A stretch of DNA of 64,000 nucleotides from Candidatus Moraniibacteriota bacterium (lineage in GTDB: Bacteria; Patescibacteriota; Minisyncoccia; Moranbacterales; UBA2206). Below are positions 296 to 54,577 of this stretch, piece by piece. The stretch covers positions 61,655 to 125,654 of the forward strand of contig JBAQNP010000005.1 in NCBI GenBank assembly GCA_049303905.1, given 5' to 3'. A program made the translations under genes and the position numbers. The notes under the pieces are model-generated. The model searched no databases. It saw only the letters and a program-made list of their open reading frames with translations, and was not told the origin of the DNA. Each line of letters begins with the position of its first letter. Position 1 is the first letter of the stretch.

Positions 296-1207
296 ATGCT
301 TCTAATTCTACGCACTAAGAAAAAATCTTCCAAAAAAATGACTGAGTTTAACAAAAAACTCTCTGCACATCTTAAGAAAAAAAATATTTCTTTTGATTTA
401 TCCAGTTTTGAAGATATGGAGTTATTTTTGGAAAATAAAAAAATAAATTTATTGATTGACGGAAAATCTTTGGAAAATTGGAAGACTATCTATCCCCGAA
501 AAGTTGGGCGTTATGGCGGAATGGCTTTTATCCTAGCTAATCTGTGCAAAAATAAAAATATACAATTCATCGACAAGTTTCATGAAAAAAGCAAGGCCAG
601 TTCTGACACAGCCAAAATAATTCAAATGTTCAAGTTTTCCCTTGGTAGTGTGCCTATTCCAAAAACATACTACTCGGTTGCTTATCAAAAAGATCACATT
701 CAAAATGCCGCTAAGTTTCTTGGCTTTCCTATTGTAATAAAGCAGTGCAACAGCTCTCAGGGTTCAGGAGTTTTTTTAGCTAAGAACAAAAAAATACTAA
801 CAGCAAAAATTACCGAGCTTATGCAAAAAGAAACAGGGAAAGAAATCTTTCTTCAAGAATTTATCCCCAATACTTTCGAATATAGAGTTTTTGTCACCGG
901 GAAAGAGGTGGGCGCAGTTGAGAAAAAAATTCGTACCAAAAAAAATGAATTCAGAAATAATGTTTTCCTTGGTGCCAGAGAAGAATTTATGAATATTACC
1001 TCAGTTAAAAAAATAATTCTTAATACTGCGTTAAGAGCTTCACGAGTGGCTAATATCCAAGTTTCTGGAGTGGATGTTGTAGAAAAGGAAAATGGCGAGG
1101 TTGCAATCTTTGAGGCTAATAGCTGTCCCAGTTTAACGCTTAATGAAAAAATTTCTCCTGAACTAAAAAGCTTAAGTGATTATTTAGAAAAATGCGAAAA
1201 AAAATAA
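296..1207 (+). CDS. RimK-like ATP-grasp ligase
   Basis: ATP-grasp fold signatures are present (FPIVIKQCNSSQGSGVFLAKN…, EFIP…YRVFVTG…, SGVDVVEKENGEVAIFEANSCPSL). The real start may be Met15 (MTEFNKK). Confidence 0.65.
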   Translation: MLLILRTKKKSSKKMTEFNKKLSAHLKKKNISFDLSSFEDMELFLENKKINLLIDGKSLENWKTIYPRKVGRYGGMAFILANLCKNKNIQFIDKFHEKSKASSDTAKIIQMFKFSLGSVPIPKTYYSVAYQKDHIQNAAKFLGFPIVIKQCNSSQGSGVFLAKNKKILTAKITELMQKETGKEIFLQEFIPNTFEYRVFVTGKEVGAVEKKIRTKKNEFRNNVFLGAREEFMNITSVKKIILNTALRASRVANIQVSGVDVVEKENGEVAIFEANSCPSLTLNEKISPELKSLSDYLEKCEKK

Positions 1208-2136
1208 TAATGTTTTTTAATAAGGAAAAATCAGAAGAAAACCCCTTTTTTGGTTTTGGTGAAAAAGAGGCGGTCTATTTTGATTTTTTCAAACAAGGCA
1301 CCCTTTCTGGTGCTGATATGTATATATCCAGTAAGGAAAAGAATTACCAAGGCGGATTAAAATTCAAAGATCCTCTCTTTTTTAATGGGAAAAAATTCAA
1401 AAAAATATCTGGCATCATAACTGCCGATGCAATTTATGATAGAAGTGGTGGATTGAAATTTCCTTCCAAAAAAATAAGTCAAAAAGTTTTGAACAACATT
1501 GCTTTCAAATCTCTTTGTTATAGTAAAAACAAAATGTATGAAACTCTTGGTGAATTTATGCCAAAAAGCTTTAAGATAAAAAATCAAAATGATTTTGAAA
1601 AAAAAATTAAATTATTTTCTCCAAATGAAATGGTTGTTATCAAGCCATCCGAAGGTTTAGGTGGAAAAGGTATTATCATAGACACTGTTTCAAATATTAT
1701 AAAATTAAAATTAGTTATTAAAAAAGAAACTGTTCTGCAAAGGTTTGTAGATACCTCTCTTGGAATAAAAAATATCACTAATGGTCGACACGATTTGAGA
1801 ATTGTTATAGTTTTTGGAAAAATAATTTTTGCCAGCCTGCGAACCCCCAAAGAAGGTAGTCTTCTTGCTAATGTCGCCCAGGGCGGAAAGATAAAAGAAA
1901 TTTCTATTAAAAAAATTCCTACTGAAGTCAAAAGTGTTGTTTTAAAAATACAAAAAGTTCTGGATAAAAAATTCAATTATCCAATTTATTCAATTGATCT
2001 TGGTATTGAAAATACCCAGCCTTTTGTTTTTGAATTAAATGATCAGATTGGTTTTCCTTCTAAGAAAATGAAAAGTTATAAGCTTTTTAATAAAGCCTTA
2101 ATTAAGTCTTTAGGAAAAATAGCAGCTCAAAAATAA
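1192..2136 (+). CDS. ATP-grasp family ligase, third in the tandem set
   Basis: Motifs MVVIKPSEGLGGKGIII, DLRIVIVFGK, ANVAQGGKI and SIDLGIE… fit an ATP-grasp protein. It overlaps the upstream gene by 16 nt, consistent with an operon. Confidence 0.55.
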   Translation: MRKKIIMFFNKEKSEENPFFGFGEKEAVYFDFFKQGTLSGADMYISSKEKNYQGGLKFKDPLFFNGKKFKKISGIITADAIYDRSGGLKFPSKKISQKVLNNIAFKSLCYSKNKMYETLGEFMPKSFKIKNQNDFEKKIKLFSPNEMVVIKPSEGLGGKGIIIDTVSNIIKLKLVIKKETVLQRFVDTSLGIKNITNGRHDLRIVIVFGKIIFASLRTPKEGSLLANVAQGGKIKEISIKKIPTEVKSVVLKIQKVLDKKFNYPIYSIDLGIENTQPFVFELNDQIGFPSKKMKSYKLFNKALIKSLGKIAAQK

Positions 2137-2206
2137 CTTTGCCTTGATAACTTTTCTCTTTTATAATAGAATATAAGATGCTTTATAAATAAGCTAAATA
2201 AATTGT

Positions 2207-4765
2207 ATGTATATCTTCAGCCCTAAAAATTCTACCGGATCATCCGGCAAAAAACGTTTTAAAATTAATTGGAAATTCCTACGAAAATCGGCTTTGATTT
2301 TTTTTGGCGCTATCTTGCTTTTTGTTATTGCGGTTTTCGCTTGGTTTGCCAAGGATCTTCCAAGCCCTGGGAATCTGAAGAATCGCGTCGTCATTCAATC
2401 AACTAAGATCTATGATCGCAGTGGAAATCATATTCTTTATGAAGTCCACGGAGAAGAAAAAAGAACGGAAATCCCCTTTTCCCAAATGCCGGAAAGTTTG
2501 CGTTATGCTACTATCGCCCTGGAAGATCAAAGTTTCTATAATCATATCGGTATTCAACCGAAAAGTATTTTGCGCGCTGCTCTAAAGGATGTTTTCAAGT
2601 TTGGCGCTTCTCAAGGTGGATCAACTATCACCCAGCAACTTATCAAGCAATCCCTCCTGACCTCAGAAAAAACTTTCACAAGAAAAATAAAAGAAGTTAT
2701 TCTGGCTATCGAACTAGAACAAAAATTTTCCAAAGACGAAATCTTAGCCATGTATCTTAACGAGATTCCTTATGGCTCTAATGCTTATGGCGTTGAAGCG
2801 GCCGCCCAAACTTTTTTTGGTAAACATGCCAGCGAACTAACACTGGATGAATCCGCTATCTTAGCTTCCCTACCTCAAGCGCCTTCTCGATATTCACCTT
2901 ATGGAACCCACACAGAAAACCTCAAGGCTCGTCAAGAGTATGCATTGAGTCAAATGGCTCGCTTAGGTTATATAACTCAAGATCAAGCCAATGAAGCAAA
3001 GGCAGTGGATATTTTTTCTAAGATAAAAACTTTTTCTGATAATATCAGTGCCCCACATTTCGTAATGTATATTAAAGAATCTTTAGAAAAAAAATATGGG
3101 GCTGAGGCGGTTGAACAAGGTGGACTAAAAGTTTATACCACCCTTGATTGGGATAAGCAAAAAATCGCTGAGGAAGCCATCAAAAACCACAGTGAAAAAA
3201 ATGCCACCACCTACAAGGCCAACAATCAGGCACTTGTGGCGATGGATCCAAAAACTGGTCAGATTTTAGCCATGGTAGGTTCAAAAGATTATTTTGGCAA
3301 AGCCGTTCCTGCCGGTTGCGTGTCTGGAAAAAATTGTAAGTTTGAAGGCAATTTCAATGTGGCTACTGCTCTTCGCCAACCCGGCTCATCCTTTAAGCCC
3401 TATGTCTATCTAACCGCATTTTCCAAAGGCTATACCCCAGAAACAAATCTTTGGGATGTAGACACTAATTTTTCTACTGATGATGGAAAAGAATATAATC
3501 CAAAAAATTATGACGGCGAAAATCGAGGTTTACTTAAGATGAAAGACGCGTTAGCAATGTCACTTAATGTTCCTGCAGTAAAAACACTTTATCTCGCTGG
3601 GGTGCAAGAATCCATAGATACAGCTCATAAAATGGGTATCACGACCCTAAAAAATCCTAAAGATTATGGTCTTTCTTTAGTTCTTGGTGGAGGTGAGGTA
3701 AAATTACTTGATCATGTTAATGCTTTTTCCACCTTTGCTACAGGCGGAATTCATCATTCCACTGTTTCTGTTTTAAAAGTTGAAAGCGGATCAGGTGAAA
3801 TTTTAGAAGAATATAAACCGAGCGACGGACAAAGAGTGATCGAAGAAAAACATGTCGCGATGATAGACTACGTTTTATCCACTAATGAACTTCGCGCTCC
3901 GGTATTTGGAGAAAACAATCCACTCAAATTTGAAAATCGTCCTGTGGCAGCTAAAACTGGCACTACCAATGAATGGCGCGATGGTTGGACTGTTGGGTAT
4001 ACTCCATCTTTAGTCGCGGGTGTTTGGGCAGGGAATAATGATAATTCCATAATGGCCGAAGGGGCGGATGGATCCTATGTTGCCGCACCAATCTGGCGTG
4101 AATTTATGGAAAAATCTTTAGTTAATTATGATATTGAAAAATTTCCGGAATACAAAAAAGATGAAGAAGAAACAGGAAAAGATGTGCTAGATGGAAAACT
4201 TGATGACAAAAAAGAAATCCGCGTCTGTAAGATTCCCGGCTCTGACGATTATTGTTTAGCTAATGATAATTGCCCAGAATCTGAAAGAGAGAAAAAGAAA
4301 TTCGCCGACGCGCATTCTATTTTATATTATGTAAAAAAAGATGATCCCCGTGGAGACAAACCAGAAAAACCCGAGGATGATCCGCAGTTTAAGGGTTGGG
4401 AAAAAGCCATTGAAAAATGGTTGGACAAAAAAGAAGGTTATTCTTCTCGACCAACTCCAGAAAAAGAATGTCGGTCAGATGATTTTAAGGATTTTGATCC
4501 AAGTATAAAAATATCAGCGCCTTCTAGTGTTAGCTCTTCTTCTTTTACTATAAAAGTAAAAGCAGATGCGCCATTTGGAGTGGATAAGATAACTTTGTCT
4601 ATTGAAGGCGAGGAAGTTAAATCATCCTCTGAATCCTCTTTTAGTTATGACTATTCAGTTCCTGATTCCAAGAAAAATACTACTCTTTCAATTAAGGCCA
4701 CTGTCAAAGATAAAAATGGCGACAGTGATTCCGATAACACATCCGTGAAAACAAATATTCCCTAA
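2207..4765 (+). CDS. Class A penicillin-binding protein (PBP1A: transglycosylase plus transpeptidase) with a C-terminal Ig-like extension
   Basis: N-terminal TM segment. GT51 motifs (EDQSFYNHIGI, GGSTITQQL). Transpeptidase motifs SSFKP (SxxK) and KTGTT. The Ser/Thr-rich C-terminus has Big-like repeats. Confidence 0.85.
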   Translation: MYIFSPKNSTGSSGKKRFKINWKFLRKSALIFFGAILLFVIAVFAWFAKDLPSPGNLKNRVVIQSTKIYDRSGNHILYEVHGEEKRTEIPFSQMPESLRYATIALEDQSFYNHIGIQPKSILRAALKDVFKFGASQGGSTITQQLIKQSLLTSEKTFTRKIKEVILAIELEQKFSKDEILAMYLNEIPYGSNAYGVEAAAQTFFGKHASELTLDESAILASLPQAPSRYSPYGTHTENLKARQEYALSQMARLGYITQDQANEAKAVDIFSKIKTFSDNISAPHFVMYIKESLEKKYGAEAVEQGGLKVYTTLDWDKQKIAEEAIKNHSEKNATTYKANNQALVAMDPKTGQILAMVGSKDYFGKAVPAGCVSGKNCKFEGNFNVATALRQPGSSFKPYVYLTAFSKGYTPETNLWDVDTNFSTDDGKEYNPKNYDGENRGLLKMKDALAMSLNVPAVKTLYLAGVQESIDTAHKMGITTLKNPKDYGLSLVLGGGEVKLLDHVNAFSTFATGGIHHSTVSVLKVESGSGEILEEYKPSDGQRVIEEKHVAMIDYVLSTNELRAPVFGENNPLKFENRPVAAKTGTTNEWRDGWTVGYTPSLVAGVWAGNNDNSIMAEGADGSYVAAPIWREFMEKSLVNYDIEKFPEYKKDEEETGKDVLDGKLDDKKEIRVCKIPGSDDYCLANDNCPESEREKKKFADAHSILYYVKKDDPRGDKPEKPEDDPQFKGWEKAIEKWLDKKEGYSSRPTPEKECRSDDFKDFDPSIKISAPSSVSSSSFTIKVKADAPFGVDKITLSIEGEEVKSSSESSFSYDYSVPDSKKNTTLSIKATVKDKNGDSDSDNTSVKTNIP

Positions 4766-46223: not shown

Positions 46224-48332
46224 TTATTCCTTATTCACATTCTTCATAGTGAGACTTATTTTTCCTTGATCGTCAATTGTTTTGACGCGTACGGGAACAA
46301 TTTGGCCAACTTTCAAGTAGTCTTCTACATTTTCTACGCGTTTATCGGCAATTTCACTGACGTGAATGAGACCATCTTGTCCTGGGAGAAGTTCGACGAA
46401 AGCGCCGAAAGCCATAATTTTGACTACCTTAGCTTGGAAGATTTCACCGGCTTTGACTTCTCGGGTGAGGTTATTAATCCATTCTTTCGCCTTTTCAGCA
46501 GACTGTTTGTCAACGGAAGTGATGAAAACTGAACCGTCGTCTTCAATGTCAATTTCTACTCCAGTTTCGTCAATTATTTCATTGATGACTTTGCCACCAG
46601 TACCGATGACATTTCTAATTTTGTCAGGATTGATATGCATAACGATAATGCGTGGAGCATATTGAGACATTTCAGGATTTGGAACAGCGATAGTGTCGGT
46701 AATTTTCTTGAGAATTTCCATTCTATTTTTTTGCGATTGGATAAGAACGGCTTCGAGCATTGGAATGGTCACTCCATCAAGTTTCACATCCATTTGCAAA
46801 GCGGTAATTCCTTCGCTTGTTCCAGCCGCTTTGAAGTCCATGTCGCCATAATGATCCTCGAGTCCTTGAATGTCCGTTAGAACTTTAAATTTTTGATTGT
46901 CCTTTTGATCAACGATAATTCCCATGGCAATTCCTGAAACAGGACGCTTAATCGGCACACCAGCATTCATAAGAGAAAGGGTGGATCCACAAGTAGAAGC
47001 CATTGAAGAAGAACCATTGGAAGAAAGTGTTTCACTCATAAGAAGAATTGTATATGGAAATTCTTCTTTGGAAGGCAAAACTGGCACGAGGGCTTTTTCT
47101 GCGAGTGCTCCATGGCCAATTTCTCGTCGCCCTGGACCGCGCATTGGTCGTACTTCTCCGACTGAGTATGGCGGGAAGTTGTAATAATGAATATATCTCT
47201 TTTTAGTGTCTACTTCCATCGTGTCGATTATTTGTTCCGCTCCCGGAGCACCAAGAGTTGTGACGGTGAGGGCTTGAGTTTCTCCGCGAGTGAAAAGCCC
47301 GGTACCATGAGTGCGTGGCAAAATTCCTACTTTGCATTCGATATGACGAATTTCTTCTAGTTTCCGTCCATCCGGTCGCATTTCTTTTTCTAGGATATTT
47401 TGATGTACAATTTCATCAGATACTTCTTCGGATACAATATCCGCTATTTCTTTGAGTTTCTCTGCTTCATCCGGATAGGTTTCCTTGATGAAAACAGAAA
47501 TTTTTTCACTAATTGCTTTGGTTTTCTCTTCAATAACCTTTTTGTCTTTATCATAAAGCGCTTCGGCTAGTCCTTCTGACAAAAGCATTTCCTTGATCTT
47601 ATTTTCAAATTCCTCTGTTCCTTTGACAAGCGCTGGCTCAGATTTTTCTTTTCCAATTTCTTTTTGAATTTGTCCAACAAATTCTGAGATTTTTCCAATG
47701 GCTTCATGAGCGAATTTAATTGCTTCGATCATTTCTGATTCTGGTACTTCCTTAGAAGCGCATTCAATCATATTGATTTTGTCTTGTGTTCCACTGACGA
47801 GAAGATCGAGTGATCCGTCAGTTAATTCTCCATTGACTGGGTTTAGGATTAGTTCTTCTCCAACTTTTCCTACGCGAACGGCGCTCACGGGTCCATTCCA
47901 AGGAATGTTGGAAATGGAAAGCGCGGCTGAGGCAGCGATAATAGCAACTACATCCGGATCGTTTTCGCCATCATATGATAAAACAGTACAAACTACTTGT
48001 ACATCATTTCTCATTCGAGAGTTGAAAAGTGGGCGAATAGTTCGGTCAACTGCGCGACCAGACAAAATTGCATCGTCGCTTGGTCGGCCTTCACGCTTGA
48101 TGAATCTCGAACCTTTAATTTTCCCAGCGGCATAATATCTTTCTTCAAAATCTACCATTAGTGGAAAATACCCACTCACTCTTGATGCAGATTTACTCAT
48201 GACAGCTGTAGCAAGCACCACTGTGTCGCCATAACGAGCCGTTACAGCGCCGTTGGCTTGACCGGCCAAAAGACCGGTTTCGATTTCCAAAATTCGTCCC
48301 CCAACTTGGAGGGACCATTTTTTTTGTTCCAT
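46224..48332 (-). CDS. pnp: Polyribonucleotide nucleotidyltransferase (PNPase)
   Basis: Two RNase PH domains, plus the KH and S1 domains (…GEIFQAKVVKIMAFGAFVEL…). 702 aa. Lies downstream of rpsO. Confidence 0.9.
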   Translation of the reverse strand: MEQKKWSLQVGGRILEIETGLLAGQANGAVTARYGDTVVLATAVMSKSASRVSGYFPLMVDFEERYYAAGKIKGSRFIKREGRPSDDAILSGRAVDRTIRPLFNSRMRNDVQVVCTVLSYDGENDPDVVAIIAASAALSISNIPWNGPVSAVRVGKVGEELILNPVNGELTDGSLDLLVSGTQDKINMIECASKEVPESEMIEAIKFAHEAIGKISEFVGQIQKEIGKEKSEPALVKGTEEFENKIKEMLLSEGLAEALYDKDKKVIEEKTKAISEKISVFIKETYPDEAEKLKEIADIVSEEVSDEIVHQNILEKEMRPDGRKLEEIRHIECKVGILPRTHGTGLFTRGETQALTVTTLGAPGAEQIIDTMEVDTKKRYIHYYNFPPYSVGEVRPMRGPGRREIGHGALAEKALVPVLPSKEEFPYTILLMSETLSSNGSSSMASTCGSTLSLMNAGVPIKRPVSGIAMGIIVDQKDNQKFKVLTDIQGLEDHYGDMDFKAAGTSEGITALQMDVKLDGVTIPMLEAVLIQSQKNRMEILKKITDTIAVPNPEMSQYAPRIIVMHINPDKIRNVIGTGGKVINEIIDETGVEIDIEDDGSVFITSVDKQSAEKAKEWINNLTREVKAGEIFQAKVVKIMAFGAFVELLPGQDGLIHVSEIADKRVENVEDYLKVGQIVPVRVKTIDDQGKISLTMKNVNKE

Positions 48333-48354
48333 AGATTGCGTAAATTCACGCGAA

Positions 48355-48395
48355 AGTCAAAAGTCAAAAGTCAAAAGTCAAAACTACAATTCAAA
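48355..48395. repeat. Heptamer tandem array (AAAGTCA)x4, decaying into related 7-mers, in the pnp leader region
   Basis: Read directly: aaagtcaaaagtcaaaagtcaaaagtcaaaactac…. Confidence 0.8.
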
Positions 48396-48594
48396 ACTTA
48401 AAAGTTAAATACTGAATTGTGGCTTTGAGTGGCTTTTCTTTAGCCTTGGGCGTGATTTTAAATTACTTAATTATTGTTAAAATTCTAGCTTATTTTAGGG
48501 GTTTTGTCAATTTTTTTAGGAAAAATAAAAAAACGGAGCATAATCCGTTTTTTGTATATTCGTATATTTGTAATAGATTAGTAATTCGTAAAGT

Positions 48595-49092
48595 TTAGAT
48601 CAAAAACTTCTTTTTATTCTCACTTAAGTTGATGAAAGCATCTAATTCTTCGACAAGTTTTCCGCTAGTGGACTCGCTAAAAGCAATGCCTTCGACGCGA
48701 CAGCCGGTAGTGGATTGAATATATTTGACAAGCGGAATATAGTCTCCATCACCTGAGACAAGCACAATTACATCCAAACTTTTGGACATTTTGATAGCAT
48801 CAATGGCAATTCCAACGTCCCAGTCGCCTTTTTTGGCACCACCGGGAAAAATTTGAAGATCCTTAGTTTTGACTTCATAGCCAACTTTTTCCAAAGCTTC
48901 AAAGAATTTTTCCTCTTGGCCTTCTAGGGTTTTGATTCCATAGGCAATAGCGCGGATGAGTTTTCGGTCCCCGACAGCTTCTTTTAGGATTTGTCCAAAG
49001 CTAACTTTCTTTTTATGCAAAACTTTGGCGCTATAATAGAGATTTTGAATGTCCACCAAGACACCCACTCTTTGCTCTTTGTATATGCTCAT
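48595..49092 (-). CDS. NYN-domain (LabA/DUF88-like) protein
   Basis: VGVLVDIQNLYYS…, IVLVSGDGDYIPLV. The PIN-like acidic residues are present. Confidence 0.6.
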   Translation of the reverse strand: MSIYKEQRVGVLVDIQNLYYSAKVLHKKKVSFGQILKEAVGDRKLIRAIAYGIKTLEGQEEKFFEALEKVGYEVKTKDLQIFPGGAKKGDWDVGIAIDAIKMSKSLDVIVLVSGDGDYIPLVKYIQSTTGCRVEGIAFSESTSGKLVEELDAFINLSENKKKFLI

Positions 49093-49106
49093 ATAGTATA
49101 AATTTC

Positions 49107-49240
49107 AGAAAAATAGTTTTTAGAGATTAGAAAATAGTTCAGGAAACTTGAAATTAGAAAATAGAATCAAAAAATATCCTTTTTCAATTTTCTTTTTTCT
49201 TGAGCTAACTTCCACTTTCCTTTTTACTTATTTCTTGTGG
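49107..49240. repeat. ~130-bp dispersed repeat, first copy
   Basis: …tagaaaatagttcaggaaacttgaaattagaaaatagaatc…ctaacttccactttcctttttacttatttctt. It aligns along its length with 58999-59130. Confidence 0.75.
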
Positions 49241-49241
49241 T

Positions 49242-49526
49242 CTATCCTTTTAAATCAAGCTTTTTAATCAAAGTTTTGTAGGCTTTTTCGTTGGTTTTTT
49301 GCAAGTATCCCATTAGTTTCTTTCTTTTAGAAACCATTTTCAAAAGTCCTCGGCGAGAATGAAAGTCCTTGGCATTCTTTTTGAGGTGAGTGGTGAGTTT
49401 TTTGATTTGTTCTGAGAAAAGGGCGATTTGGTATTCTGGAGAACCAGTATCCTTTTCGTGGCGAGCTACTTCCTTAGTTACTTTCTGCTTTTGTTTGGCG
49501 CTTAGAGCCATAGTTTTTTCGGCCAA
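49242..49526 (-). CDS. rpsO: 30S ribosomal protein S15
   Basis: …HEKDTGSPEYQIALFSEQIKKLTTHLKKNAKDFHSRRGLLKMVSKR… is the S15 consensus. The rpsO-pnp linkage supports the call. Confidence 0.9.
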   Translation of the reverse strand: MAEKTMALSAKQKQKVTKEVARHEKDTGSPEYQIALFSEQIKKLTTHLKKNAKDFHSRRGLLKMVSKRKKLMGYLQKTNEKAYKTLIKKLDLKG

Positions 49527-49656
49527 ACACTCGTTGCGAGAACTTCCCCCTCGAAAAACCAGTGTCGGCTAGTTAGAATTATTATATATCAATATTACAA
49601 TATAATTTAAGTTTTGGCAAATTTTTGGAATATTGAAATAAAAAAGAAGAAGGGCA

Positions 49657-49690
49657 TCTAAATTTTAGAAATTTAGATGCCCTTGTATGT
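49657..49690. terminator. Perfect 15-bp-stem hairpin terminator (AAGGGCATCTAAATTT…AAATTTAGATGCCCTT)
   Basis: Read directly. It separates the retron-RT transcription unit from the rpsO promoter region. Confidence 0.65.
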
Positions 49691-49715
49691 CTTCAGCCGT
49701 TTGGCTGGTTGTTTC

Positions 49716-50045
49716 CCCAGAAAGCTTAGAGGGTTGTCTCAACGACAAGGGGAGATTTGGGTCTTTCATTGCCGCGCTTTAATTTTAAATCCTCTCGAGT
49801 CGCCGATATCGGTAAAGATATGTGAAACACGCGAAGATACTCAAAAAAAACGTTCGCAAAGATCTTCAAGGGGAAGAAAAATGCTAGGCGATATGGGACA
49901 TTCCCTGACGAAACTTTCGGTTTCCGGAAATTCCCTCTACGCCATTTGAATGACGCAGATGTTTCTTACTGCTGGACTGAAAAAGGTATAAAATTTCATA
50001 CCTTCCCAATCAATCTCCCAATAAAGCCCTCTAAGCTTCTGATGT
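49716..50045. ncRNA. Candidate structured ncRNA bounded by a long-range inverted repeat, adjacent to the retron-type RT; possibly an msr/msd-like template RNA
   Basis: CAGAAAGCTTAGAGGG (49719-49735) is the reverse complement of CCCTCTAAGCTTCTG (50028-50042), with ~290 bp between. The segment is non-coding, GC-elevated, and has several local hairpins. Confidence 0.35.
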
Positions 50046-50066
50046 TTTAATCTTAGCAGAGTTTAT

Positions 50067-51161
50067 TTATTTGTGAAGTTTCCGCATTTCTCTAAATTTC
50101 AGGACAACTTCACTTTCTGATTTGTGACGGAAGGCATAAGGACTTCTTTTTCGCGTCACTGAGAAAAAAGCTCCCATCATACCTTGAATGATTTCAAAAG
50201 GTATGAGACCTTTTTCATAAAGATGTATTGCCCCATTAATTTTCCTGAGATAATTTCTGGGCAAAAAAGTTTCTCCTCTAAATTTCAATCCCACGCCGGT
50301 GATTATAATCTGGCGTTTCTCTGCCAAATCAATTACGGCTGATTTTTTGTGACTGATTTGCAGTCCGGCATCAATAATTACTTGGCGAATTTTTTTTCGC
50401 ACTCTTTTTCCGATTGGCTTCAAAGAAGAAAAAGCCAAATCATCAAGAAATCTGGTAAAACGAAGATCATTTTTTTCACAAATCTCCGCTAATGGCGCAT
50501 CTAATAAATACGCCGCAAAGATGTTTGCTAGATCTACTGAAGCTGGCGCGCCGGTTTTTAGTCCCGTGCCAGACTTCAAGAAGCAATATTTTTTCAAGAA
50601 TTTGGAGAGTTTTTTTCTATTTTCCCAAGTTGTCATACAGAGAATATCCAGTAGTCTATCTCCGTCAATGTTATTATAGAAGCTATGAATATCGAGGAGA
50701 TAAAAATATCTTCCGTTCTTATGCTTTTCTACATTTCTCAGTGGACTCCAGCCGGTGATTCCACCGGTGGCAAAACGAAGGCCAACTGGAAGCTCGTTTA
50801 TCAATTCTTTACTTCTCAGAACATTTCGAACAAATGCGCGATGAATTAAGCGCATAGTGAGGTTTGGATTGTGGATAGTCCGAAATTTACGGGTATTTTT
50901 TATTGGATTGAAATCTTCCAACTTATATACTCTGAATTTCGGAGACTGAAAAGTGAAAAAACAGAAATAAAAGTAGAAAATCCAAAAATTCAAACTTGCT
51001 TGAATTTCCTTGACTTCGAAATCCGGTTTTTTTCCGAAAAAAATCTGATATAAATTGTCAAATAACATAGGTCGCCCCCTTATTATTGAATGTTTTTTTA
51101 TTTGTTTTAGTTTAAAGCAGAATAGCAGAACAGGGCATAATTGGCAAGTTTTTGGCGACAA
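50067..51161 (-). CDS. Retron-type reverse transcriptase
   Basis: RT motif 1 RKFRTIHNP. Motif 2 TGGITGWSPLRNVEKH (the retron NAxxH). Motif 3 YFYLLDIHSFY. Motif 4 GLKTGAPASVDLANIF. Motif 5 FLDDLAFS (the YADD-equivalent). The retron VTG motif appears as IITGVG. The true start may be Met32. Confidence 0.7.
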   Translation of the reverse strand: MSPKTCQLCPVLLFCFKLKQIKKHSIIRGRPMLFDNLYQIFFGKKPDFEVKEIQASLNFWIFYFYFCFFTFQSPKFRVYKLEDFNPIKNTRKFRTIHNPNLTMRLIHRAFVRNVLRSKELINELPVGLRFATGGITGWSPLRNVEKHKNGRYFYLLDIHSFYNNIDGDRLLDILCMTTWENRKKLSKFLKKYCFLKSGTGLKTGAPASVDLANIFAAYLLDAPLAEICEKNDLRFTRFLDDLAFSSLKPIGKRVRKKIRQVIIDAGLQISHKKSAVIDLAEKRQIIITGVGLKFRGETFLPRNYLRKINGAIHLYEKGLIPFEIIQGMMGAFFSVTRKRSPYAFRHKSESEVVLKFREMRKLHK

Positions 51162-51190
51162 AGTTCCTAGTGTGGTAAGATGAGATTATT

Positions 51191-54100
51191 ATGCATGAAA
51201 TATTGGAAAAACTTAATGCTCCGCAAAGAGAGGCGGTGACGACGACGGAAGGGCCGGTTCTCATTATTGCGGGGGCAGGATCGGGGAAAACGCGCGCACT
51301 AACACACAGGGTGGCGTATTTGATTTGTGAAAAAAAGATTAGTCCTCGAAGAATTTTGGCGGTGACTTTTACTAATAAAGCGGCGGGAGAGATGAAGGAA
51401 AGGATTAGGGAATTACTTAGTGCAAATACGCGAATTGATGCGAATGATGCGAATGACCTCACCCCCAGCCCCTCTCCTTATAAAGGAGAGGGTAGCCAAT
51501 ATGATATGCCAACAGTCGGAACTTTTCATTCTATCTGCGTGAGGATTTTGCGTCATGAGATTGAGAAGATGGGATATAAAAGCTCTTTTAATATTTTTGA
51601 TGATCAAGATCAGCTGGCTCTCATGAAAAAAGTGATGAAAGAAATGGAAATTAACACCGATCAATTCAAACCAAAAGCAATTCTTGGCGCAATTTCCAAT
51701 GCGAAAAATGAACTCAAGAGTGCGGAGGAATTTTTAGCAGGAGTGGGTGGATATTTTGAAGAGATGGTGGCCAAGATTTATCTGAACTATCAAAAAAAAT
51801 TGAAAGATCAAGGTGCTTTGGATTTTGATGATATCTTGATGATTATAGTGAAGCTTTTCCAAAAGTTTCCAGAAGTTTTGGAAAAGTATCAGAATTTTTT
51901 TCAGTATATTATGGTAGACGAATATCAAGATACTAACCGCGCGCAATATTTGTTGGTAAAATTGTTGTCGGAAAAATATAAAAATTTGTGTGTGGTGGGT
52001 GATGATTGGCAATGTTTTCCGAGGGGAATAAAAATATCAGTGGATGACAAAAAAACCAAAAATATTGAGAAAATAAGAAAAGGAGATGCAATTATGTCAG
52101 CTTCAGGGCAAGGTGAGATTTGCCCTCAATCGATAGAAAGAAATAAAAAATCTAAATTCAAGGGAGAGCTAATAAAAATCACGACAAAATCAGGTAAAAG
52201 TTTAATGGCTACACCTAACCATATTCTTTTTTCTAAATTATCTTTAAGCGCAAATATATTCTATGTATATTTAATGTATAAAAAAGAGATAGGATATCGT
52301 ATTGGAATGGTAAAGGGAATTAGGATAGTTAAATCAAATGGACTTAATGCGGGATTAAATGTCAGGGCTAATCAAGAACGAGCAGACAGGATGTGGATTT
52401 TGAAAATTTGCCAGACAAAAACCCAAGCGCAATACTGGGAGCAATATCTTGGATTTTTTTATGGTATTCCGACGTTGGTTTTTATTGCGGGCAGTGGAAG
52501 AAAAATGAAATTTGAGCAAAAATATTTGGATGATTTGTATAAAAATATTAATACCTTAGAAAGAGTTAAGAAAATATTTTTAGATTTTAATTTAAATTTT
52601 GATTATCCTCATCATATTCCGCAATCAACCATAAGAAGTGGAATAAAAAGAGTTTCTGTTAACTTTACTTTATTTAGCGATCGCAGAAAAGGAATTTCAA
52701 TTAGCAATTGGGGAAGACACAGGATAAGCATTAATTCGAATGACAAAGAGACTAAAAAAATACTAGAGTTAGCTGGTTTCAAAACGAGAAAAGGAAAGAA
52801 GAATGATTGGCGATTGGAAATTTCTAGCAGAAAATATGAGGAAATGGAAAAGGTTCTAAATAAAATTATAAAAATTATTCCTAATATAGTGGTCACCAAA
52901 AGAGCGCTCTTAGCGGGAGGCAAAAGATTTTATTTTCAACCGGCGGGACATATCAGAGAAACAATGCTCGTGCCTATTTTAGAAAAAGGAAAAATTATTG
53001 AAGAGGAGATAGAAAAAGTTGAAAAAATAAAATATGCTGGTCCGGTTTATGATTTAGATGTAGCAAATGTGCATAATTATATTGCAAATAATTTTGTGGT
53101 GCATAATTCAATTTATGGATGGCGAGGAGCCAATATTCAAAATATTTTAGATTTTGAAAAAGATTATCCGCAGGCGCGCGTGATTAAGTTGGAGCAGAAT
53201 TATCGCTCGACGCAAAATATTTTAGACGCGGCTTATGGTGTGATTTCAAAAAACATTAATCGCAAGGACAAAAAAATTTGGACGGATAATCAAAGCGGGC
53301 ATCTTCTTTCTAGTTTTGAAGCAGAAGATGAAAAAGAAGAAGCACAGTTTATTGTGGATGAGATAAAAAAAATATGTCATCCTGAACTTGTTTCAAAATC
53401 TAATGAGGAGATTCCGGATCAAGTCCGGAATGACAAATACAGATTTTCCGATTTTGTAGTTCTCTATCGAACCAATGCGCAGTCTCGAATGATTGAAGAA
53501 GCGATGCTTCGAAATTCTATTCCGTACCGAATTATTGGCGGGGTAAAATTCTACCAAAGAAAAGAAATTAAAGATGTGATTGCATATCTGCGAGTGATTA
53601 ATAATTTTAATGATGAAACTTCGCTGGAACGAATTATTAATGAACCGAAGCGAGGGATAGGCGATGTAACACTGAGCAAGTGGATAAAAATAGCTCGATT
53701 AGATGAAAATAATTTAATAGATGCAGGGATTAAAATTAAACAGTTGCAAGATACAAAATACAAGATACAAGATACAAGACTGGATGCAATTGTGAAATTT
53801 TGCGAATTCATTCAGAGAATGTCAGAGCTCAAAGAAAAATTATCTCTTACTGATTTTATCCAAAAAATTTATAGTGAATCGGGGTATGAAAGATTTCTTA
53901 TGGACGGAACTGAAGAGGGAGAAATGAGAAATGAAAATGTTAGAGAGCTTCTCACTGTTGCAAAGAAATATGACGAGTATGAACCAATGGAAAGTTTGAA
54001 ATTATTTTTAGAAGAAGTAGCTTTGGTTTCTGACACGGATAATATTGATCAAGCTGTTGATGCGGTACATCTTATGACACTTCACAGTGCTAAAGGTTTA

Positions 54101-54577
54101 GAATTTAAAATTGTTTTTATTGCTGGGCTCGAAGAAGGGATTTTGCCACATTCCAGAAGTATGCTTAGCGACTCTGAAATGGAAGAAGAGAGACGCCTGA
54201 TGTATGTGGGAATCACGCGCGCTATGGAAAAAGTCTATTTGCTTTTTACTCGTATGCGAAATATTTTTGGTTCCACACAGATTAATGCTTCTTCAAGATT
54301 TTTGGAAGATGTGCCGGAGCATCTACTTGAGTCATATAACATGAAGCATGAAACATGTAACAAAAAACAAAGTGATAAGATTAGGCAAGGTTCGGAAAAA
54401 AATGCTTCATGCTTCATGCTTCATGCTTCATGTTTTAAGGACGGTGATCGGGTGCGACATGAGGTTTTTGGTGATGGCTTGATTGTTGCGAGTCAAGGCG
54501 ACATAATCACCGTCGCCTTTTCCAAGGCGGGACTCAAAAAACTTTCTACTTCAATCGCACACTTAGAAAAAATATAA
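51191..54577 (+). CDS. pcrA: ATP-dependent DNA helicase PcrA/UvrD, interrupted by an intein and carrying an in-frame palindromic insertion
   Basis: Walker A AGAGSGKTR. Motifs Ia, II (DEYQD) and IV-VI are present. Motif III reads VVGDDWQ|intein|SIYGWRGA. The N-terminal insert TPSPSPYKGEG is encoded by the palindromic element. Confidence 0.85.
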   Translation: MHEILEKLNAPQREAVTTTEGPVLIIAGAGSGKTRALTHRVAYLICEKKISPRRILAVTFTNKAAGEMKERIRELLSANTRIDANDANDLTPSPSPYKGEGSQYDMPTVGTFHSICVRILRHEIEKMGYKSSFNIFDDQDQLALMKKVMKEMEINTDQFKPKAILGAISNAKNELKSAEEFLAGVGGYFEEMVAKIYLNYQKKLKDQGALDFDDILMIIVKLFQKFPEVLEKYQNFFQYIMVDEYQDTNRAQYLLVKLLSEKYKNLCVVGDDWQCFPRGIKISVDDKKTKNIEKIRKGDAIMSASGQGEICPQSIERNKKSKFKGELIKITTKSGKSLMATPNHILFSKLSLSANIFYVYLMYKKEIGYRIGMVKGIRIVKSNGLNAGLNVRANQERADRMWILKICQTKTQAQYWEQYLGFFYGIPTLVFIAGSGRKMKFEQKYLDDLYKNINTLERVKKIFLDFNLNFDYPHHIPQSTIRSGIKRVSVNFTLFSDRRKGISISNWGRHRISINSNDKETKKILELAGFKTRKGKKNDWRLEISSRKYEEMEKVLNKIIKIIPNIVVTKRALLAGGKRFYFQPAGHIRETMLVPILEKGKIIEEEIEKVEKIKYAGPVYDLDVANVHNYIANNFVVHNSIYGWRGANIQNILDFEKDYPQARVIKLEQNYRSTQNILDAAYGVISKNINRKDKKIWTDNQSGHLLSSFEAEDEKEEAQFIVDEIKKICHPELVSKSNEEIPDQVRNDKYRFSDFVVLYRTNAQSRMIEEAMLRNSIPYRIIGGVKFYQRKEIKDVIAYLRVINNFNDETSLERIINEPKRGIGDVTLSKWIKIARLDENNLIDAGIKIKQLQDTKYKIQDTRLDAIVKFCEFIQRMSELKEKLSLTDFIQKIYSESGYERFLMDGTEEGEMRNENVRELLTVAKKYDEYEPMESLKLFLEEVALVSDTDNIDQAVDAVHLMTLHSAKGLEFKIVFIAGLEEGILPHSRSMLSDSEMEEERRLMYVGITRAMEKVYLLFTRMRNIFGSTQINASSRFLEDVPEHLLESYNMKHETCNKKQSDKIRQGSEKNASCFMLHASCFKDGDRVRHEVFGDGLIVASQGDIITVAFSKAGLKKLSTSIAHLEKI
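52013..53107 (+). mobile_element. Intein (365 aa) inside pcrA motif III, with a central endonuclease-like region
   Basis: Starts at Cys1 (CFPRG…). Block B TPNH. C-terminal blocks VYDLDVANVHNYIANNFVVHN followed by +1 Ser. Excision restores the canonical GDDxQSIYGWRGA. Confidence 0.8.

Follow-up and report, generated by a model that had tools for sequence, protein, structure and literature searches.

On the minus strand of a 64,000-nucleotide stretch from the genome of a Candidatus Moraniibacteriota bacterium (contig JBAQNP010000005.1; the whole stretch is called the window here), positions 51147-49650 hold a reverse transcriptase (RT) gene and, directly past its stop codon, a structured non-coding RNA (ncRNA). 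We believe, with a probability of about 0.68, that the two form a self-contained retroelement module made of a promoter, a 333-amino-acid (aa) RT of the retron lineage, an ncRNA of ~320 nucleotides (nt) and a terminator. On this reading the module is an orphan specific to bacteria of the Candidate Phyla Radiation (CPR), and we propose that it makes an RNA-templated DNA (RT-DNA). Retrons are seen as tripartite defence systems that resemble toxin-antitoxin pairs and come mainly from Proteobacteria, and to our knowledge CPR bacteria are thought to carry almost only RTs of diversity-generating retroelements (DGRs). What is new here is a CPR-specific two-component module of the retron lineage, a new ncRNA family and a flexible layout, one that is possibly permuted as well.

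The reverse transcriptase

An earlier reading of the letters of the window (the sequence-only reading) took the open reading frame (ORF) at 50067..51161 on the minus strand for a retron-type RT. This ORF gives 364 aa when read from a TTG. The true start is likely ATG 51068 rather than the TTG, which gives a product of 333 aa. We take the gene as 50067-51068 (minus strand) because an AGGGGG ribosome-binding site stands 6 nt 5' of that ATG, and because the 333-aa product is identical to NCBI protein P0001, annotated as 'reverse transcriptase domain-containing protein [Candidatus Moraniibacteriota bacterium]'. A taxonomy lookup places the host in the Patescibacteria/Parcubacteria group (CPR).

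The RT belongs to the retron lineage, since retron RTs are its closest relatives by both sequence profiles and structure search. The Pfam domain RVT_1 matches at E 2e-13 (50.9 bits, cut-off 29.6). The top 25 PADLOC matches are all retron RT models, the best of them being types II-A, III-A and VI at E about 1e-30. Among NCBIfam models retron_St85 ranks first with 110 bits, under its 235-bit cut-off, and the group II model TIGR04416 (group_II_RT_mat) and the UG/Abi-type models Drt3a and Drt2 rank lower with 38 bits (cut-off 300), 37.5 bits (cut-off 200) and 31 bits (cut-off 390). When the family profile is searched against all PDB sequences, retrons Ec83, Ec86, Ec78 and Ec67 match at E 1e-24 to 1e-14, and the range extends to 6e-7 once Kva2 and Eco8 are included. 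Group II RTs score about 1e-6 and Drt2 scores 1e-5; no DGR RT is among the matches of this search. The AlphaFold (AF2) model of the protein has a mean predicted local distance difference test score (pLDDT) of 84.7, and a Foldseek search of PDB with it returns nothing but retron RTs at ranks 1-10, followed by group II at 11, DRT9 at 24, DRT2 at 27 and the DGR enzyme bRT at 37. The call of a retron-type RT is borne out by all of these searches (PADLOC, NCBIfam, PDB sequence and fold), and no DGR, group II or Abi profile outscores the retron models.

The motifs tell the same story with small corrections. All of those listed in the sequence-only reading are present, with slight changes of form: the NAxxH signature is NVEKH in the window (N(V/A)xxH family-wide) and the VTG signature is ITGVG ((I/V)(T/C)G family-wide). 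The changes from A to V and from V to I are conservative. The YADD-equivalent is FLDD, with D209, D210 and D126 invariant in 32 homologs, and motif 4 is the retron-like GAPASVDLAN. The gene is intact and under strong purifying selection, with a ratio of nonsynonymous to synonymous divergence (dN/dS) of 0.07-0.10 against the two close relatives L001 and L002, at dS about 1.

It is important to realize what this assignment covers. All 32 of 32 family members match every listed retron RT model, with best E-values per model of about 1e-26 to 1e-39 and no dominant type. We place the family inside the retron lineage but in none of its 13 typed clades, because the scores are moderate and about equal across types (retron_St85 at 110 vs 235 bits). 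Full membership among the retrons would call for msDNA (multicopy single-stranded DNA), a G for priming that adjoins the closing stem's 5' arm, and an effector; the assignment of the RT should be read as one of lineage only.

One could argue instead that the gene is the remnant of a group II intron, a group-II-like RT, or a decaying pseudogene next to a fortuitously structured spacer. Group II RTs are detectable relatives after all, at E 1e-6 by sequence and rank 11 by fold. The enzyme is a single-domain protein of about 300 aa, however, and has no maturase or endonuclease domain. Here the earlier view of a ~330-aa protein lacking the maturase X domain holds, at 333 aa and with TIGR04416 far under its cut-off. 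No group II RNA from Rfam matches positions 48000-52500 even at E<=10, the RT is under strong purifying selection, and the ncRNA described below covaries across 42 sequences. The missing intron RNA and maturase, the selection and the covariation largely refute this alternative, which we consider extremely improbable.

The protein has an aromatic and hydrophobic N-terminal insert, FWIFYFYFCFFTF, of ~35 aa at residues about 9-43 (window 50937-51043, minus strand), encoded by U-rich DNA and limited to the window's subclade. We considered the insert as a fused membrane effector and rejected this, given its restriction to one subclade, its weak hydrophobicity (Kyte-Doolittle 1.3) and its low pLDDT.

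A conserved RNA beside the gene

The sequence-only reading saw little room for a canonical msr/msd. It had considered only the upstream side, and a conserved structured ncRNA lies immediately downstream. The gap of 540 bp between the RT stop and rpsO holds this RNA, and on the RT strand the gap folds far better than shuffles of itself (z = -5.96; the z-scores obtained for this RNA run from -5.2 to -6.0). The partner ncRNA, recognized by its fold, its conservation and its homologs, is about 322 nt long (49719..50040, minus strand like all of its parts), both arms of a closing stem included. In that 14-bp stem the 5' arm AGAAGCUUAGAGGG (50027..50040) pairs with the 3' arm CCCUCUAAGCUUUCU (49719..49733), and a C-to-U change in the 3' arm of L002 keeps its pair as G-U. 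The conserved core (49855..49978) contains an A-rich linker, hairpin A (49936-49959; 9 bp with an nCAn loop), hairpin B (49895-49935; GNRA-like loop) and a pyrimidine tract, UUUUUCUUCCCCUU (49868-49881), which is of the UUUUUCU type in the family. Covariance model R1 describes this core and scores the window copy at 98.9 bits (E 8e-17). A weak R1 match in the coding region of the RT N-terminus, 50937-51043 (minus strand; 18.5 bits, E 0.66), is probably noise but could be the relic of an upstream copy of the ncRNA.

The RNA is more conserved than the RT gene itself. The three close relatives L001, L002 and L003 have RT proteins 82-84% identical to that of the window, and among close relatives the ncRNA region has 87-91% nucleotide identity vs 81% for the coding sequence, with 54-59% of synonymous sites differing (pS about 0.56-0.59 against L001 and L002). 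In these relatives the 5' arm of the closing stem is precisely where conservation sets in. At the other end an intrinsic terminator found by a terminator scan (49650..49684, minus strand), with a 16-bp stem and a U-run, ends the RT-ncRNA unit and is conserved in L002. A consensus scan also picks up a promoter-like site at 50050..50077 (minus strand; TTCACA-16-TAAGAT with a TG) from which transcription would begin near the closing stem's 5' arm. Because this site is not conserved in L001 or L002, co-transcription of the ncRNA with the RT is equally possible. Searches of Rfam with window positions 48000-52500 at E<=10 and with 13 related loci at E<=0.1 returned only noise and tRNAs; this RNA, which is not in Rfam 15, is a new ncRNA family and could enter Rfam as one.

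More distant homologs carry a related RNA upstream of the RT. A covariance model built on the shared core and refined once was run on 62 sources and matches 45 sites; 44 of these share the strand of the RT and lie immediately beside it. In all, 38 CPR loci have the core next to a homologous RT: 21 have it upstream of the gene, 16 have it downstream, and one (L017) has it on both sides. By this model the core is lacking in the distant non-CPR RT loci L031-L035. Across 42 distinct sequences each of the 17 core pairs shows changes in both partners, and pairing is kept in 92% of cells, vs 46-61% when the partners are slid. Independently, an alignment made with MAFFT only, from 7 sequences of one subclade, recovers these hairpins and the closing stem and adds one helix, with compensatory changes in each. 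In the 18 loci examined for it, a perfect stem of 9-18 bp surrounds the core, where the position of the stem is equivalent and its sequence is unrelated between loci; in 13 of the 18 it beats all or all but one of 60 shuffles of the flanks. In short, the ncRNA is conserved, it covaries, and it travels on the same strand with this RT family.

A neighbour-joining tree of the RTs has a large clade with the RNA downstream, formed by the window subclade together with L016, L040, L045, L046, L049, L054, L058 and L063. The RNA is also downstream in L018, L020, L021 and L022, and upstream in the remaining loci. Its position tracks the RT phylogeny, which implies at least three switches of side.

Some loci have more than one copy. 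L017 carries two (2718-2935 and 4035-4274), one on each side of the RT, with a nearly identical core; compensatory changes set their closing stems apart, and their variable regions differ as well. Tandem pairs are found in L015 (2437-2526 and 2790-2872) and L022 (4022-4117 and 4324-4420), where the core is common and the closing stem and variable region differ. The ncRNA of L005 has a promoter-like site and a terminator of its own.

Could the structured RNA be a cis-regulatory element in an untranslated region, for example an autoregulatory binding site for the RT, rather than a template? It always lies beside the gene and on its strand, as such an element would. However, it can stand upstream or downstream of the gene, L005 has a separate promoter-like site and terminator for it, L017, L015 and L022 each have two diverged copies for one RT, and a closing stem around variable cargo is typical of template RNAs. 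We find a purely regulatory role very unlikely.

Hosts of the family and the search for an effector

A word-indexed protein search returned only 7 relatives of the RT. An exhaustive hidden Markov model (HMM) search of 1.84 billion cluster representatives (clusters at 50% identity) returned 397 at E<=1e-30; some of these may be RTs from other retron clades, because characterized retron RTs score 1e-24 to 1e-14 on the same profile. The 150 matches listed all have E-values below 1e-57, and almost every one is a single-domain protein of about 300 aa. A genome scan gave 20 loci with RT homologs and a metagenome scan gave 35. Every host with a name belongs to a CPR lineage, namely Saccharibacteria, Paceibacterota, Parcubacteria, Berkelbacteria and Wildermuthbacteria. 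We also considered a phage origin of the module. None of the IMG/VR contigs encodes the RT, and the INPHARED phages contain only retron RTs at 25-30% identity and no match to the ncRNA, so a phage origin is rejected.

The genes around related RTs are unrelated housekeeping genes such as leuS, ruvA, mur ligases and pilin. All-vs-all BLASTP of the neighbouring ORFs, covering 26 loci with a minimum length of 90 aa and 56 loci with a minimum of 35 aa, finds no conserved protein partner. The ORF clusters that do recur are the RT itself, antisense shadows of the RT or of the ncRNA, and small synteny groups such as leuS. Only the RT recurs across both sets of loci, and we reject a conserved adjacent effector on this basis. 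The remark in the sequence-only reading that no effector is obvious can be extended to the whole family.

The leuS group comes from L004, L013, L023, L042 and L043: each has an RT-adjacent ORF in a single homology cluster, to which the leuS product of L004 also belongs (gene calls cover L004 only). These neighbours are local synteny and not a functional partner. The L004 leucyl-tRNA synthetase gene (512-3763, minus strand) has Pfam matches to GIY-YIG and NUDIX inside the synthetase, which suggests an inserted element.

This still leaves the idea of a canonical tripartite retron whose effector is not adjacent, either encoded in trans or by a neighbour such as the NYN-domain (PIN-like nuclease) gene at 48595-49092, two genes downstream of the RT. 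An RT of the retron lineage and an ncRNA with a closing stem fit this idea, and effectors in trans have been raised for orphan retrons by Mestre et al. 2020 (PMC7736814). Against it, neither the NYN gene nor any other neighbour recurs beside the RT in the 26 and 56 loci, and the contexts are unrelated housekeeping genes. We regard a distant or neighbouring effector as quite unlikely.

A proposed mechanism

Our reading of the locus as a two-part module suggests how it may work. The RT would recognize and bind the conserved hairpins A and B. It would then copy a segment of the same RNA into a short, msDNA-like RT-DNA primed from a 2'-OH of the RNA, as the retron lineage of the enzyme and the architecture of the RNA suggest. 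The function might be carried by the complex of RT, RNA and complementary DNA (cDNA) itself or together with a factor encoded elsewhere, in which case the module would resemble an 'orphan' retron such as those of the Ec107 branch. The most likely role would be phage defence or some other function at the level of nucleic acids.

In characterized retrons the 5' arm has the priming G at its inner end, where a helix strand stops, within TAGC, CAGC, CAGA, GAGC or ACGC (PMC6868368). In this family the sequence (A/C)C(C/U)UCAGCG is found in about 28 of 41 ncRNAs, 40-130 nt 3' of the pyrimidine tract. The CAGCG lies past the hairpins in the downstream direction, where an internal helix has its 3' exit. 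The best candidate for the priming nucleotide would be the G of this conserved CAGCG. If so, the priming nucleotide would lie 3' of the template, an order permuted relative to retrons and like that of DGR RNA.

Helix P2, in which YUGAGG pairs with CCUCAG, is graded only as probable because cognate pairing (4.4 bp) barely beats non-cognate pairing (4.0 bp), both motifs being conserved in sequence.

Several points weigh against our reading and should be stated together. Characterized retrons work through an effector, and none is present at these loci. The RT-DNA or msDNA and its 2'-5' branch are predictions of ours. The ncRNAs examined have no conserved YAGC after the 5' arm of the closing stem, which is the canonical position in retrons. 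The exact CAGCG is missing in the window's own subclade, which has the diverged version GACUCGAGAGG, and because of this divergence the case for a priming G would be weaker at the window locus than elsewhere. The helix partner of the CAGCG strand is ambiguous, with two candidates. The first is YUGAGG just upstream of hairpin A, which forms 6-7 bp in about 14 loci and switches to UUGAAG/CUUCAG in a subclade. The second is AAGGNNNN (AAGG) just after hairpin B, which covaries in the L016 subclade, where the helix ends immediately before CAGCG. There are also 17 related loci without a match to the core, some of them truncated contigs and some with divergent RTs. Finally, alignments made with a covariance model are fitted to that model and favour the structure it contains.

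A bolder version of the same idea would be a permuted minimal retron found throughout the CPR. Here the G of CAGCG would prime, the 5' part of the ncRNA or the hairpin core would be copied, and a toxin-free RT-DNA or ribonucleoprotein would be the end product, with modular cargo that is duplicated and has diverged in some genomes. We offer this tentatively and think it more likely wrong than right. If it were true, these elements would be a distinct class of retroelements standing between retrons and DGRs in their priming geometry, and their role could be something other than abortive infection.

Comparison with known systems

The module shares several features with retrons. The RT has the N(A/V)xxH and (V/I)TG signatures and a retron-like fold, and the adjacent ncRNA is on the same strand, its ends paired by a long inverted-repeat stem that encloses small hairpins along with a variable region. 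The effector-less branch of orphan retrons around Retron-Eco5/Ec107 is the nearest precedent. That branch is also mostly without an effector, and its function was left open by Mestre et al. (PMC7736814). The differences from retrons are just as clear. The window ncRNA lies downstream of the RT stop rather than in an upstream msr-msd-ret cassette, the RT falls outside all 13 typed clades, and the hosts are CPR/Patescibacteria. A conserved CAGC is present only 3' of the hairpins, with none after the 5' arm of the closing stem. Types I-XIII are tripartite, whereas here there is no effector gene or fused effector domain, and the msDNA is a predicted product. Literature searches turned up nothing specific on retrons from Patescibacteria/CPR or on retron ncRNAs placed downstream of their RT.

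The second comparison is with the defence-associated RTs DRT2 (UG2) and DRT9 (UG28), two-component systems of an RT and a structured ncRNA with no separate effector gene, whose cDNA product is itself the functional output. By analogy the RT and ncRNA of the window could be the whole system and make a long, concatemeric or homopolymeric cDNA rather than a short msDNA. Such a cDNA would be templated by the U-rich tract or by rolling-circle copying of the stem-closed loop, and the cDNA, or a gene created by it, would be the effector. The scaffold hairpins, the conserved UUUUUCU tract and the stem joining distant segments of the ncRNA are all compatible with this, and both enzymes are detectable structural relatives of the RT (DRT9 at rank 24, DRT2 at rank 27). 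However, sequence and fold place the RT with retrons and not with the UG/DRT classes (Drt2 at 31 vs retron at 110 bits), and at only about 300 aa it is a smaller protein without the extra domains of DRT9. Nor is there any sign of a repeat-encoded ORF. Many of the ncRNAs have long stop-free frames, but these are no longer than in dinucleotide shuffles, and the antisense ORF at 49677-49949 is broken by 1-2-nt indels in relatives. For these reasons we reject a neo-like ORF made from cDNA, and we consider the DRT-like scenario as a whole unlikely.

The third comparison is with DGRs, which make up about 80% of CPR RTs (PMC8632793); the only CPR-specific group in reviews is the small UG38 group. Could the RT be a DGR enzyme and the adjacent RNA its template repeat (TR) or spacer? 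DGR RNA is self-primed from an internal 2'-OH 3' of the template, the same order as proposed here, and DGRs are the commonest RT class in CPR. Yet there is no TR/variable repeat (VR) pair for 49527-51190: an A-masked search and blastn find no copy of any part of this region elsewhere in the 64-kb window, whether or not adenine-specific mismatches are allowed, with zero A-masked matches, so the VR/TR pair that was named beforehand as a sign of a DGR did not turn up. Neither an Avd-like gene nor a target gene recurs beside the RT, motif 4 (GAPASVDLAN) is retron-like, and bRT is absent from the PDB sequence matches and only at rank 37 by fold. With no VR/TR within the window and an RT that is not DGR-like by sequence or fold, this explanation is largely refuted and has next to no chance of being correct.

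We believe the two-part module deserves attention for what it combines: a sizeable family of the retron lineage without an effector, in CPR, with a partner RNA on either side of the gene and a priming-like motif in a non-canonical place. If it makes RT-DNA, it would show what the core of a retron does without an effector and would widen the known host range of retrons. It would also offer compact pairs of RT and ncRNA (about 1.4 kb) with naturally swappable cargo for tools that produce DNA with retrons.

The genomic neighbourhood

The sequence-only reading put the RT between rpsO and a divergent pcrA with an upstream flank of ~120 bp, and this is correct. The distance from the pcrA start to the RT ATG is 122 bp. 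The RT has a promoter-like site in this interval (51119..51147, minus strand; TTGCCA-17-TATTCT with a TG, by consensus scan) which is where the conserved module begins on its upstream side. The window, L001 and L002 become similar from the -35 region of the RT onward, though the genes upstream differ, and the same difference of genes upstream of 51147-51119 is seen in the three close relatives. In L002, at about 225-250 (compare window 51170-51215), the RT promoter and the first ~8 codons of pcrA are kept and are followed by unrelated sequence. The next gene there differs from pcrA, and the rearrangement breakpoint is immediately beside the module.

On the 3' side, rpsO (Ribosomal_S15; 49242-49526, minus strand) has its own promoter-like site (49592-49620, minus strand; TTGCCA-17-TAATAT) directly past the ncRNA terminator, and this site is conserved in L002. 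Because the terminator is followed by this conserved site, the RT-ncRNA unit is transcriptionally insulated from rpsO. The NYN gene discussed above (48595-49092, minus strand) encodes 165 aa and lies between rpsO and pnp. The PcrA/UvrD gene (51191-54577, plus strand), the divergent neighbour of the RT, contains an intein at roughly 52000-53110; Pfam Intein_splicing and Hint match residues about 273-640 of the 1128-aa product.

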